64,000 nucleotides of DNA from Escherichia coli (GTDB taxonomy: Bacteria > Pseudomonadota > Gammaproteobacteria > Enterobacterales > Enterobacteriaceae). How positions within the stretch are numbered: position 1 is the first letter of the stretch; the number at the start of each line of letters is the position of its first letter. The notes beneath the pieces were generated by a model. That model made no database searches and had not been told where the DNA came from. It saw only the letters and a program-made list of their open reading frames with translations. This document shows, in pieces, positions 729-53,301 of the stretch. Made by a program: the position numbers and the translations under genes. The stretch lies in assembly GCF_041248615.1 (NCBI RefSeq), contig NZ_CP158426.1; one strand, 5' to 3'.

Positions 729-2666
729 TCAGTAACGACGTCCCCATTCCGTGGCGCTCATCAATGTCGGTTTATCCCCCATGAAATAGCGGTAGTAAGC
801 GTCATAAGCCAGCACGTTCTTCACATAACCGCGCGTCTCGGAGAACGGAATACTCTCGACAAATGCCACTGCGTCGATACGCCCGGCGCTGTTGCCAAGC
901 CAGGTTCGCACCCGCCCTGGTCCGGCGTTATAAGCTGCTGAGGAGAAAATACGGTTATTACCAAACTGCTGATAAACATATTGCAGGTAACTGGTGCCAA
1001 TGTTGATGTTCGTTTCCGGATCCAGCAATTGTCCTGGGCTGCTATAACCAGGAATAGAGAACATCTTCACCGTATGGGTCGCCGTGCCCGGCATAATCTG
1101 CATCAGGCCGCTGGCCCCTACCGGCGATTTCACTTTCGGATTCCAGGCACTCTCCTGACGGGCAATCGCCATCGCATAGCTTTGCGGGATCTCCTTCCCA
1201 CTGGTGTAACGTTTGAAAAGATCGTTGTAGGCCAGCGGGAATCGTTCTTCCAGATGATCCCACAGCTTCCCGGCGATCGTTGCCTGAACGCTAAGATCCC
1301 ACCATTGGTTATTGAAAGCATACCGAGCCAGTTGCGCCTGCTCTGTTTTTGACTTGCTCTTCACCAGATTGGCCCACTCGCTACGCGCGGTGTTATCGAG
1401 ATTCCAGTACATCAACTCGCGCACGCGCGCCATCTCCGGCCCCTGAGTCAGGGCGCTGTCAACATTCTGCGGCGCTTTATCAATCTTCAGCTCATACTCT
1501 TCTCCGATGCGTTGTGCTGCAACCATCGGGTAGAAACCACGCTGTTGCATGAGTTGATGCAAAATCTCTTTCGCTTCAGCTTCACGTCCGCGTTCCAGCA
1601 GTAAATCCGCCTGCCAGTAACGCCATTCATCTTTCTCTTTCGCCTCCATCGGCAAACGCGCCAGCCAGGTATTCAGGCCGCGACGATCGCCGGTGCCAAG
1701 CGCCATTCGCACACGGCGTTCAATAAGCGAAGTAGATTGCGAACGCATAATGGCGTCATCACGCCATTTCGCCTGTTCGTCGGTGACATCGTTGCCCATC
1801 AAACGCCAGGCGACGATATCGCGCAGCTCCTGAATCTGATCTTCATTAAGCTGCTGCGCCTGGGCAAGCGACGGAATCATCAGCCGTGCATTTTCAGCAT
1901 CCTGCCGCGCCACACTGGCAAACGCCACCGCCGCCATTTGACGGGTAAAATCGGTCGCTCCGGTTGTACGCGCGAAGGTCAGTACCGTATTAGGATTGTT
2001 CGCCAGTGAAATAATTGCCGAAGCGATAGTCTGGTAATCGGCAGGCATCTGCCCTGCCAGCACTGTTACCAGGCCAGTGTTACCCGCTTTCATCGCCAGA
2101 CGGATACGCTCTAAATACGCCAGCGGATCTTGTTTACCTGACGCACGCCAGACGCTAAATAACTTGTCACAGGCGTTAGGCTGGCTCTTGCCGGTTAGCC
2201 ACAGCTCTTTCGCCCCTTGCCAGGCTTCTTCACTCTGCCCGGTGTTCCATTTTGCATAGTAGTAATTACATTGCGCTTCGGTAGTTCCGGGCTTTTCCGG
2301 GCTAAAGGCTAACAAGCCACGCCAGTCTTCACGCCGCGCCAGTTCATTGACGAAACGAGATTGCAGCGTGCGAGCGGGAGGAAGCGTGGGGTTAGCGCGA
2401 ACAAAGTTAGTGACCGTCACCGCCGGTTGATTCATCAGATCATCGGTGATCTGGCGGTATTCCAGGTAGGGATAAAGCGGATAATCTTTCAGTCCAGGCA
2501 TCATTTGTTCGACCACATCCATTTGTCGATTATCCCAGGCCTGCTTGATTTGGGCGTAGCGGCTACGCTGCTCATCCAGTGAGTCGGCTCGCGCCACGCT
2601 GCTGACCGTCAGCAGACAGACACCGGCAGCCAACAGCCGCCAGGTAACGTGTTTGGCTTTTTCCAC
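729..2666 (-). CDS. slt: Soluble lytic murein transglycosylase Slt70 (GTG start inferred; six-frame ORF extends to 2696)
   Basis: 645 aa from VEKAKHVTWRLLAAGVCLL signal peptide to C-terminal SLT domain; matches Slt as recalled. Confidence 0.93.
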   Translation of the reverse strand: MEKAKHVTWRLLAAGVCLLTVSSVARADSLDEQRSRYAQIKQAWDNRQMDVVEQMMPGLKDYPLYPYLEYRQITDDLMNQPAVTVTNFVRANPTLPPARTLQSRFVNELARREDWRGLLAFSPEKPGTTEAQCNYYYAKWNTGQSEEAWQGAKELWLTGKSQPNACDKLFSVWRASGKQDPLAYLERIRLAMKAGNTGLVTVLAGQMPADYQTIASAIISLANNPNTVLTFARTTGATDFTRQMAAVAFASVARQDAENARLMIPSLAQAQQLNEDQIQELRDIVAWRLMGNDVTDEQAKWRDDAIMRSQSTSLIERRVRMALGTGDRRGLNTWLARLPMEAKEKDEWRYWQADLLLERGREAEAKEILHQLMQQRGFYPMVAAQRIGEEYELKIDKAPQNVDSALTQGPEMARVRELMYWNLDNTARSEWANLVKSKSKTEQAQLARYAFNNQWWDLSVQATIAGKLWDHLEERFPLAYNDLFKRYTSGKEIPQSYAMAIARQESAWNPKVKSPVGASGLMQIMPGTATHTVKMFSIPGYSSPGQLLDPETNINIGTSYLQYVYQQFGNNRIFSSAAYNAGPGRVRTWLGNSAGRIDAVAFVESIPFSETRGYVKNVLAYDAYYRYFMGDKPTLMSATEWGRRY

Positions 2667-50940: not shown

Positions 50941-51248
50941 TCACTCCAGTACTTTTCCGGGCGGGCAATACCCGGGCCGCATTCCACGGTGTATTCCACA
51001 ATATCCACACCAAGGCGACTCAGATCGGCAAACCAGTCACCGGAAGGTCTCTTCTCCAGCTCCACCATTTTGCGATCTGCCAGATAATCAAGCTCCCGGC
51101 GCAGCTCCAGTTGCGTGGTGTCCGGGTAGATGGCGCGGGACACTTCCAGCAGCAACGTCTCGCTGGCGGTGTAAGGGCGGGTTTTGTTAAGGGCAACCAG
51201 CAGACTCCAGCGCAGGGATTCACGGCGTACCCGGGTAATATCGACCAT
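50937..51248 (-). CDS. Hypothetical protein (Mu gp26 position)
   Basis: 103 aa ORF in operon context. Confidence 0.45.
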   Translation of the reverse strand: MVDITRVRRESLRWSLLVALNKTRPYTASETLLLEVSRAIYPDTTQLELRRELDYLADRKMVELEKRPSGDWFADLSRLGVDIVEYTVECGPGIARPEKYWSE

Positions 51249-51574
51249 TATTGACCTCCGGTATTGCGGTACTGCTGTACCACTTCCAGTTTGTTGTAAA
51301 GCGCGTCCAGTTTGGCCTCGATGACTGTCTGGCCACGGATATAATCCTCGCGACGGACATAATTCAGCGGTAAATCCGCTTTAAATCGCATCAATTCTTT
51401 TTCCAGCTCGCCCCAACTGGAGGCGGACTGCTGCAGTGACTGCTCAAGAGAGGCAAAACGTGCAGCCTGACGTTCCTCCGCTTTACTGAACAGCCATTTG
51501 GCCATACCGCCAACAAAGCTCATGAAGGTGATGAGAAAGCCCACCACCGTCCAGAATTCAACCTGCAGTGTCAT
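51248..51574 (-). CDS. Small membrane protein (Mu gp25 position)
   Basis: 108 aa, N-terminal TM helix. Confidence 0.5.
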   Translation of the reverse strand: MTLQVEFWTVVGFLITFMSFVGGMAKWLFSKAEERQAARFASLEQSLQQSASSWGELEKELMRFKADLPLNYVRREDYIRGQTVIEAKLDALYNKLEVVQQYRNTGGQ

Positions 51575-52224
51575 TTCTGTAATCCTTCCCGTTCATCCAG
51601 CAACGCGTTTATCTGGTTCCGCCAGCGACGACATTGTCCTGCGTTGTCGATGATGTTGGCGAGAACGTCACGCTGGGAGACACCCGAATCGCGTAACCGG
51701 GTATCAGCGGTTTCAGGTTGCCCGGTCGCTGCGCCAGTGCCGGTGCCAGCGGTGGCAGTTGCGTCTGAATGACCGGTGTCGACGGATGCGTTGTCATATC
51801 CGAGTGCGGCGTTGTACTGGCGCACGAAACCGCGAGTAAACACGCACTCAATGGGATGGCTCTTACCTTTTTCATCAATCCAGCGCTGTGTGACATCGTT
51901 AATTTGCCCCTGTAGTTGTTTGTTCCGGCTCTCCAGTTGAGCAATCTGCTCAAGGTAACTGGCTTCAGCCCGTTGCCCGGCGGCTACCTGCTCCTGATAC
52001 CGTTTTGCCCATGCTCGCAATGCAGCGTTCTCAAGCATTGCCTGCTCCGTTTTGTATGTGTCGAATGCTGACTGCAACTCACTGATCGCCTTATCGCCGT
52101 TGCGCGTGGCGTTTTCATGCCCGCTTTTGTAGCCCAGGTAATAAAGTCCAATCAGAAAAGCATTTATGAGCACTGCCAGCAGCAGACTGCGCCACGGCAG
52201 ATTTTTTAGCAGGTTAGTCCACAC
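51571..52224 (-). CDS. Inner-membrane spanin (Rz-like)
   Basis: 217 aa, N-terminal TM helix then coiled coil; directly after endolysin. Confidence 0.6.
   Translation of the reverse strand: MWTNLLKNLPWRSLLLAVLINAFLIGLYYLGYKSGHENATRNGDKAISELQSAFDTYKTEQAMLENAALRAWAKRYQEQVAAGQRAEASYLEQIAQLESRNKQLQGQINDVTQRWIDEKGKSHPIECVFTRGFVRQYNAALGYDNASVDTGHSDATATAGTGTGAATGQPETADTRLRDSGVSQRDVLANIIDNAGQCRRWRNQINALLDEREGLQK
51609..51875 (-). CDS. Embedded outer-membrane spanin (Rz1-like lipoprotein) in alternative frame
   Basis: MKKVRAIPLSACLLAVSC lipobox-like signal then Pro-rich PSTPVIQTQLPPLAPALAQRPG; entirely inside the Rz-like gene. Confidence 0.55.
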   Translation of the reverse strand: MKKVRAIPLSACLLAVSCASTTPHSDMTTHPSTPVIQTQLPPLAPALAQRPGNLKPLIPGYAIRVSPSVTFSPTSSTTQDNVVAGGTR

Positions 52225-52948
52225 AGCTGCCGCCCCCCCATGTCAGATAACGGGGGGCCAGTTCGTGCAGGATGCGCTGCGGATAATGACGGTTCTCCCG
52301 CCAGCTGGCAGCATTGCGTCCGGCATTCACCGTGGCGACATGTCCGAACCAGCGCTGACTGTCCAGCCCCAGATTTGCGGCGAGCCGCTGGTCACGACGC
52401 ACCCAGCCCGGGCCACCGTTATAGCCCGACAGTGTCATGGCCATACGCTCGCAGTCACTGGCGGCGCTGATGCGCTGCCACAGCCAGCGGTCATAGCTGA
52501 CCAGCGCCCGGATGGCCCATGCCGGATTAAACGGCTCACGACTGCTCAGCGCCGGCATCAACTGGCTTATCCAGTCAGCGGTGGCGGGCATAAACTGCGC
52601 CAGCCCCTGAGCGCCCACCGGCGAGACCGCATCAGGCCGCCAGCCGCTTTCCTGATGCAGTTGCGCGGCGAAATCGGCCACCGGCGCAGACAGCCCCCAT
52701 TCAAGCCGGGCATTACGGATCACATCATCGCGATACTGCAGCGCAGCCTGCGGAGGCTGCGCTGCGCGGGCCTGACTGAAGAAGCCGCCACACCAGAGCA
52801 ACATTGCGACAAAGAATACCCATGCCATATGAACCAGAAAGGTCCCGACACGGACTGACAGGCGTTCGGTTCTGATGAAGACCAGAAAGGCTTCGAAAGC
52901 CAGTTTCAGGGACATGCATACAATCCAGGTGCTCTGTGGCCAGTTCAT
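52214..52948 (-). CDS. Endolysin, lytic transglycosylase (SLT-domain) type with N-terminal hydrophobic segment
   Basis: ESGW, GxxQ and YNGG-like motifs; possible start at 52948 right after the holin stop or at an internal Met. Confidence 0.7.
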   Translation of the reverse strand: MNWPQSTWIVCMSLKLAFEAFLVFIRTERLSVRVGTFLVHMAWVFFVAMLLWCGGFFSQARAAQPPQAALQYRDDVIRNARLEWGLSAPVADFAAQLHQESGWRPDAVSPVGAQGLAQFMPATADWISQLMPALSSREPFNPAWAIRALVSYDRWLWQRISAASDCERMAMTLSGYNGGPGWVRRDQRLAANLGLDSQRWFGHVATVNAGRNAASWRENRHYPQRILHELAPRYLTWGGGSCVD

Positions 52949-52950
52949 GA

Positions 52951-53301
52951 TTAAAGCCCCATCGCAACAGCCAGACAGACAGCTGCAACAATCAGTGCAC
53001 GGCGGATTAACGCAGCAGAAAAAACCAGGTGAAGGCCGGTCTGTACGGGCCAGCGCCCCTCAGCCATGAGGCGCTCGTCATGCTTCAGGTACTGCCCCGG
53101 ACGGGCCTTCGGGAAGAGTGAGCGGTCCAGCCAGTAGCCGAGCACGGCGGCGAGGGAGATGAGAGAGAGCTTGTACACCACCACCGGCAACTGCTGGGGC
53201 GAGACCAGCGCGATGATGAGGAGTAGCAGCACGGCCGCAACAAGCCATCCACGCAGGCGGGTTTTTTGTACGTCAGCGATAAGGGAAGTGAATGGTTTCA
53301 T
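52951..53301 (-). CDS. Holin-like membrane protein
   Basis: 116 aa with 2-3 TM helices, first gene of the minus-strand late arm. Confidence 0.55.
   Translation of the reverse strand: MKPFTSLIADVQKTRLRGWLVAAVLLLLIIALVSPQQLPVVVYKLSLISLAAVLGYWLDRSLFPKARPGQYLKHDERLMAEGRWPVQTGLHLVFSAALIRRALIVAAVCLAVAMGL

Follow-up and report, generated by a model that had tools for sequence, protein, structure and literature searches.

The outer gene and the inner +1 open reading frame described here very probably encode a two-component spanin of the embedded lambda Rz/Rz1 type, carried by a BcepMu/B3-like transposable prophage. This reading is drawn from sequence comparison of a 64,000-nucleotide stretch of Escherichia coli DNA (contig NZ_CP158426.1), which we will call the window. 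The Rz/Rz1 arrangement is a well-known phage means of breaking the outer membrane. In the window, the assignment of the outer gene as an Rz-like i-spanin is supported, as is that of the inner ORF as an embedded, Rz1-like o-spanin and predicted lipoprotein. Therefore, we will use the terms Rz and Rz1 for the two products. The features are collected in Table 1.

Table 1. Predicted spanin genes of the window and their neighbours in the lysis cassette.
Feature	Position	Strand	Description
Holin, first lysis-cassette gene	52951..53301	(-)	PF13272 Holin_2-3, E = 1.7e-41; PHROG 1528, E = 8.7e-51
Endolysin, SLT domain	52214..52948	(-)	PF01464, E = 4e-15; 63% identity to BcepMu gp22; directly upstream of Rz
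i-spanin (Rz-like) gene	51571..52224	(-)	217 aa, GTG start; 11-nt overlap with the endolysin stop
i-spanin N-terminal transmembrane segment (predicted)	52132..52188	(-)	Residues 13-31, SLLLAVLINAFLIGLYYLG; best 19-aa Kyte-Doolittle window, 2.03
o-spanin (Rz1-like), upstream-ATG form	51609..51896	(-)	+1 frame of Rz, 95 aa, MSHSAGLMKK...; longest plausible form
o-spanin (Rz1-like), downstream-ATG form	51609..51875	(-)	MKKVRAIPL..., 88 aa; 0.53 L to 0.94 L of Rz
Lipobox AVS-C	51822..51833	(-)	Cys is the predicted lipid-modified residue 1 of the 71-aa mature o-spanin (CAS...)
gp25-like membrane protein	51248..51574	(-)	108 aa; directly downstream of Rz; 46% identity to BcepMu gp25, E = 6e-32

The element is a BcepMu/B3-like transposable (Mu-like) prophage in the E. 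coli chromosome. Its genes follow one another on the same strand in the order holin, SLT endolysin, Rz-like protein, 108-aa membrane protein, gp26-like protein, small terminase (Mu gp27-type), and large terminase. The window is identical in sequence to the chromosome of E. coli NRZ14408 (NZ_LT599825.1), and related prophage copies are present in 636 of 5426 complete E. coli genomes.

The gp25-like protein encoded after Rz has a hydrophobic N-terminal segment and was considered in two other roles. It was rejected as the lipoprotein partner of Rz since it contains no cysteine at all. It was also rejected as an equivalent of the Mu gp25 "releasin" (DUF2730), with which it gave no BLASTP alignment and for which it had no Pfam match. 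The label "lipoprotein" has nevertheless been attached to homologues of this protein, namely PHROG 462, B3 ORF28, and BcepMu25.

The product of the outer gene matches PHROG 1403, "Rz-like spanin", over its full length (E = 1.8e-88), and a CVFTRGFVR motif is invariant when it is compared with the Rz proteins of B3 and BcepMu. Pfam and NCBIfam scans of the Rz-like protein return no significant family. Only one hydrophobic segment is found in the protein by the Kyte-Doolittle scale, at residues 13-31, and the residues K7 and R12 ahead of it imply, by the positive-inside rule, a predicted N-in, C-out topology. The AlphaFold model, computed from a 19-sequence alignment (mean pLDDT 61), has a helix at residues 11-119 (pLDDT about 78-89), a linker at 120-183 modelled as disordered, and a second helix at 184-215. 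The model is confident for the first long helix only, the linker and the second helix being of low confidence. As modelled, the plan of the protein is transmembrane segment, helix, linker, and helix, as described for lambda Rz. Together, the PHROG match, the single N-terminal transmembrane segment, and the helix-linker-helix model bear out the original prediction that the outer gene encodes an Rz-like inner-membrane spanin. Regarding its cysteines, C127 is invariant across the family, while C198 is clade-specific; it is restricted to the enterobacterial clades, being present in the E. coli clade and in relatives with 40-53% identity, and is missing from B3 and BcepMu.

In the +1 frame of Rz, the ATG at 51875 opens a frame that reads MKKVRAIPLSACLLAVSCAS...PPLAPALAQRPG...GGTR before a stop whose last base is 51609. 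The 88-aa ORF opened by this ATG can be written as MKKVRAIPLSACLLAVSCASTTPHSD...PPLAPALAQRPGNLKPLIPGYA...GGTR and stop. The ATG is offset by 349 nt from the Rz start, which places it in the +1 frame, and the embedded stop ends 38 nt ahead of the Rz stop, which leaves the whole ORF within Rz. The layout originally proposed, a lipoprotein-like ORF lying wholly in the +1 frame of the Rz-like gene, is thus confirmed, with 51609-51875 falling within 51571-52224. The program-made ORF list contains the embedded frame only as a longer ORF of 114 aa with a TTG start (51609-51953), as had also been noticed.

The form starting with MKK fits the PROSITE-type lipoprotein pattern at Cys18 (PLSACLLAVSC). All of the PROSITE-type rules are obeyed by this 88-aa form, in which the Cys falls between positions 15 and 35 and K/R occurs among residues 1-7; counted from the MSH start of the longer form, the same Cys is residue 25. 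A lipoprotein signal of the kind expected for the embedded ORF is therefore predicted, with LLAVS-C as its lipobox. An alternative lipobox Cys, Cys12 (PLSAC/LSAC), was rejected since K/R falls within the required uncharged stretch, and also since the B3 Rz1, and approximately the BcepMu Rz1, align at Cys18. The mature protein begins with C-A-S and has no Asp at +2. Sorting to the outer membrane is predicted because Ala, not Asp, follows the lipobox Cys. The 71 mature residues include 11 Pro (15%), and Pro, Ser, Thr, Ala, Gly, and Gln together make up 62%; the mature part is Pro/Ser/Thr-rich, in keeping with the first description of the tail as Pro-rich. The conserved core of the mature protein is PPLAPALAQRPG, and no further (periplasmic) Cys is present. 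Scans of the embedded protein against Pfam, PHROG, and NCBIfam matched no family model.

A second in-frame ATG is located at 51896, 7 codons upstream of 51875, and neither ATG varies among 42 distinct relatives. This adds a layer of complication, since the true start of the embedded gene could be the upstream ATG (giving 95 aa with a 24-aa signal) rather than the MKK ATG, or both could be used; we give this an even chance. Pairing with the anti-SD sequence is -5.7 kcal/mol for ATG 51896 and -3.1 for ATG 51875. The first value is modest, with roughly 5-10% of the gene's 18-nt windows pairing as well or better, and the second is at background level. The upstream ATG has the stronger pairing in 38 of the 42 sequences (-5.7 to -8.9 vs -3.1 kcal/mol), and its place in the alignment is exactly that of the start codons of B3 Rz1 and BcepMu gp24. 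On the other hand, four variants have weak SD pairing upstream of ATG 51896 (-2.9), and one relative (L127, 53% Rz identity) has only the MKK-equivalent ATG, the upstream one being missing. The 95-aa MSH form also has no K/R in residues 1-7 and fails one PROSITE-type rule, and its seven extra residues differ between clades at 4 of 7 positions, compared with 1 of 7 in Rz. The SD energies and the comparative alignment do not decide between the two codons, and ATG 51896 may be the real o-spanin start. The ORF, the frame, and the lipoprotein character named in the original prediction stand, while its start at 51875 competes with the equally invariant 51896. The mature lipoprotein is identical whichever start is used.

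Taken as a single sequence, the open frame is weakly unusual and only suggestive. When the Rz codons are shuffled synonymously, the +1 frame is open for 124 codons or more in 270 of 5000 shuffles (5.4%) and contains a lipobox ORF in 108 of 5000 (2.2%). A +1 lipobox ORF is also present in 4 of 65 other long ORFs of the window. For this reason, the argument for an embedded gene relies on relatives and not on ORF length. Two scans of viral contigs, together with phage and E. coli records, provided 62 distinct Rz genes with 31-100% amino acid identity. In all 62, the +1 frame contains an ORF whose start and lipobox occupy the equivalent relative position, the lipobox being AVSC, AASC, VASC, VVSC, AAGC, or VVGC.

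Diversity was measured at each codon position after codon-aligning 42 distinct close relatives, which have 68-100% identity. Before the overlap, diversity at Rz codon positions 1, 2, and 3 is 0.18, 0.11, and 0.32, respectively, while over the Rz1 segment MKK..PGYA the corresponding values are 0.136, 0.036, and 0.050. At Rz position 3, diversity thus drops from 0.32 to 0.05 in the overlap (Mann-Whitney p = 6e-16), and variable Rz third positions decrease from 93/106 before the overlap to 22/62 within it (Fisher p = 5e-12). Where the genes overlap, Rz position 3 coincides with position 2 of the Rz1 codons, and Rz position 1 with the Rz1 wobble, which is the most variable position within MKK..PGYA. 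Translated in the Rz1 frame, the nucleotides of this segment give an amino acid identity of 0.925, compared with 0.850 when they are read in the Rz frame. In the sequence ahead of the overlap, identity in the +1 frame is only 0.59 and stops occur in 33 of the 42 sequences.

Over the final 26 codons of Rz1 the opposite holds, with an identity of 0.905 for Rz and 0.72 for Rz1, so that the two genes partition the DNA they share. The constrained core of Rz1 (signal, lipobox, and PPLAPALAQRPGNLKPLxPGYA) sits over the variable Ala/Gly/Thr linker of Rz, and the loose C-terminal tail of Rz1 sits over the conserved C-terminal helix of Rz. These alignments show that the embedded ORF is under purifying selection in its own frame. 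The original prediction depended on the embedded frame being conserved, and this is what was found, both in the 62 homologues and in the shift of variability into phase with the second gene.

An open frame arising by chance has to be weighed against these observations. The linker of Rz is G+C-rich and codes for Ala, Gly, and Thr, which could leave few +1 stops, a Pro/Ser/Thr-rich translation, and a fortuitous lipobox. The shuffle frequencies and the lipobox ORFs in other window genes given above are compatible with such an origin, as is the failure of the embedded protein to match any family model. However, the ORF with its start and lipobox is kept in every homologue down to 31% Rz identity, the variable codon position shifts to the wobble of the +1 frame, and over MKK..PGYA the Rz translation is less conserved than that of the +1 frame. 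In addition, the curated BcepMu gp24 is a homologue of the embedded protein. Because of the conservation and the phase shift of variability, we exclude a chance ORF, which we regard as extremely improbable.

It is just as improbable that the low diversity over Rz codons of about 100-180 is due to conservation of the nucleic acid itself, as an RNA structure or DNA site, and to no second protein: diversity is indeed low already from about Rz codon 100, ahead of both ATGs, and the 21 nt between the ATGs are near-invariant at all three codon positions, but past the start region constraint is confined to +1 codon positions 1 and 2 (0.036, 0.050), with position 3 free to vary (0.136, locally 0.27). 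This period of three bases, in register with the +1 frame, indicates coding constraint and is not explained by such an element, and the frame stays open, with its lipobox, across very divergent DNA.

The mechanism proposed for the embedded spanin is based on lambda Rz/Rz1 and the spanin literature. Rz would be held in the inner membrane by its N-terminal transmembrane segment, with its helical domain reaching into the periplasm. The embedded gene would be translated independently from its own start, 51896 or 51875, and its product would be exported, lipid-modified at the Cys of LLAVS-C, and freed of its signal by signal peptidase II. The Lol pathway would then carry Rz1 to the outer membrane, where binding between the C-terminal parts of Rz and Rz1 would form a bridge through the peptidoglycan mesh. 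Once the wall has been destroyed by the holin and the SLT endolysin, the complex would be free to collapse, and by fusing or disrupting the two membranes would complete lysis.

An intermolecular disulfide in at least one spanin subunit has been proposed to be near-universal (Kongari et al. 2018, PMC6139136). A single periplasmic o-spanin Cys is present in B3, in BcepMu, and in the relatives with 40-53% identity, and there is none in the E. coli clade. In the window pair, any covalent dimerisation would rest on C127 and C198 of Rz. It could be speculated that the E. coli clade re-partitioned its covalent links, losing the o-spanin Cys and using i-spanin disulfides only, and that the dual ATG start tunes signal-peptide efficiency; we consider this unlikely. 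If true, the Cys re-partition or the dual start would be a small variation on spanin biology and no new system.

The embedded o-spanin is unannotated in every RefSeq and GenBank annotation inspected. In RefSeq, the outer gene is named "hypothetical protein", "lipoprotein", or "lysis system spanin subunit". Of the pair, only the outer gene is annotated in PhiKM (filed under Bcepmuvirus) and KP12, the nearest phage records, where it is called "putative lipoprotein". A search for the embedded protein in a collection of 5.8 billion proteins found just six stray partial or mis-called proteins, with no useful names. The value of the assignment is mainly one of annotation, as with this pair the lysis cassette of these prophages is complete, comprising the holin, the endolysin, and the two spanin subunits. 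Comparison of the relatives also shows cleanly how constraint is divided between overlapping genes. The biology is ordinary, and the current understanding of spanins is unchanged.

The arrangement in the window is that of lambda Rz/Rz1, in which an o-spanin lipoprotein gene lies wholly within the i-spanin gene in the +1 frame. In both cases the i-spanin follows the plan of transmembrane segment, helix, linker, and helix (as modelled for the window), the o-spanin is Pro-rich and unstructured, and the embedded gene lies over the linker and distal helix. No sequence similarity to the lambda proteins was detected, however, and the Pfam Rz and Rz1 families do not match the window spanin proteins. 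The window proteins are also larger than those of lambda (217 and 88-95 aa), the mature Rz1 having 71 aa compared with 40 aa in lambda. Lambda Rz1 makes an intermolecular disulfide through a periplasmic Cys, which the window Rz1 lacks.

Phage Mu is a transposable phage too, and has a two-component spanin, gp23/gp23.1, encoded directly after the endolysin and ahead of gp25-gp27 (PMC9239132). The comparison with Mu gp25 gave no alignment, and no similarity was seen to the Mu proteins compared. Mu relies on a SAR muramidase and has no holin, whereas the window element has a holin and an SLT endolysin. The spanin of D108, a relative of Mu, is classed in SpaninDB as overlapped, not embedded.

Closer counterparts are found among the embedded two-component spanin families, which include (BcepMu, phiE255) and (B3, JBD25, JBD18, JBD67) (Kongari et al. 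2018, PMC6139136). The comparison with embedded Rz/Rz1 pairs that had been suggested at the outset bears on both families, since the embedded protein proves homologous to BcepMu gp24 and to the embedded B3 o-spanin. The Rz proteins of the Pseudomonas phages B3, JBD25, JBD18, and JBD67 (ORF27, Rz-like spanin, in B3) are homologous to that of the window, with 31-33% identity. B3 also has a +1 lipobox ORF from the aligned start, and the lipobox Cys of its Rz1 aligns with that of the window. After the lipobox, CATSTPP in B3 corresponds to CASTTP in the window, and PPALKQRPG...LTPSYW to PALAQRPG...LIPGYA. The two differ in that the o-spanin frame ends at 1.01-1.03 L in B3, at or just past the Rz stop, and at 0.94 L in the window. 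B3 Rz1 has one periplasmic Cys where the window Rz1 has none, and B3 has an extra small ORF between the endolysin and Rz.

In BcepMu (NC_005882), gp23 is Rz, and gp24 is annotated as "Rz1, out of frame, embedded proline-rich protein". The gene order is the same as in the window, with holin, SLT endolysin, Rz with a +1 Rz1, gp25, gp26, and TerS, and in both elements Rz1 ends 38 nt ahead of the Rz stop. Homology to the window extends over Rz (34% identity to gp23, BLASTP E = 1e-10), Rz1 (35% identity to gp24, BLASTP E = 1e-6, with PLIPGYA identical), the endolysin (63%), and gp25 (46%). A five-way alignment of Rz1 proteins has a common segment after the lipobox and a P-L-x2-R-P...L-x-P-x-Y core. 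In this alignment, the BcepMu lipobox Cys is one or two columns off that of the window. The host of BcepMu is Burkholderia, compared with E. coli for the window element. The mature Rz1 has 71 aa in the window and 56 aa in BcepMu, and Rz1 starts with ATG in the window and GTG in BcepMu. The cysteines differ as well, BcepMu Rz1 having a periplasmic Cys that the window Rz1 lacks, and the window Rz having a second Cys (C198) that BcepMu Rz lacks. Overall, the divergence from BcepMu is large, and BLASTCLUST-style grouping would probably place the window pair in a separate family.

Measured along the i-spanin, about 70% of embedded o-spanins have their start at 0.4-0.5 L and their end at 0.9-1 L (PMC6139136). 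The window o-spanin, starting at 0.50 or 0.53 L and ending at 0.94 L, fits this typical range. The pair belongs to the known BcepMu/B3 group of embedded spanins, as a hitherto unannotated member.

Both candidate Rz1 start codons, which lie in frame and 7 codons apart, are invariant in the 42 E. coli-clade sequences. Each ATG requires that Rz encode an Asp there with GAT rather than GAC. The B3 and BcepMu starts align with the upstream ATG, while a relative with 53% Rz identity (L127) has the downstream ATG only. A dual start for Rz1 is possible.

Features considered in the window and in one relative with a truncated Rz
Feature	Coordinates	Strand	Remarks
Rz1 candidate start codons	51875-51896	-	
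Rz1 mature part	51609-51824	-	
SLT endolysin ORF	52214-52948	-	compared with BcepMu gp22 by BLASTP
gp25-like protein, 108 aa	51248-51574	-	46% identity to BcepMu gp25
L061 Rz relative	1501-2154		same contig as L121, IMGVR_UViG_2898975184_000011

The cysteine content of the two spanin subunits varies by clade at Rz residues 127 and 198 and in the mature part of Rz1. Rz C127 is invariant and C198 is limited to enterobacterial clades. In the o-spanin, a single periplasmic cysteine is present in relatives with 31–53% Rz identity and missing from the E. coli clade. In the L061 relative, Rz is interrupted by a premature stop (W200 to stop), despite which the embedded +1 ORF is still open. This prophage copy may be decaying, or the stop may come from an error in sequencing.

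The i-spanin is named inconsistently across RefSeq and GenBank records L001, L002, and L004-L006, as "hypothetical protein", "lipoprotein", "putative lipoprotein", or "lysis system spanin subunit", and the embedded o-spanin is annotated in none of these records.

The annotated start of the SLT endolysin adjoins the holin stop. Compared with BcepMu gp22, the ORF is extended by ~41–43 aa at the N-terminus, and its residues 69-242 align to gp22 residues 26-202 by BLASTP. Met41 lies inside the ORF (MAWVFFVAMLLWCGGFFSQARA|AQPP), and the product from this candidate start, 204 aa long, would have a signal- or SAR-like N-terminus. The enzyme may be either secreted or tethered to the membrane.

The gp25-like protein has a single, N-terminal hydrophobic segment. 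It contains no cysteine, despite the "lipoprotein" label carried by its homologues (PHROG 462, B3 ORF28, and BcepMu25). The protein does not match Pfam DUF2730 and shows no similarity to phage Mu gp25, the "releasin" (PMC9239132), by BLASTP; its gene occupies the same place as gp25 in phage Mu.
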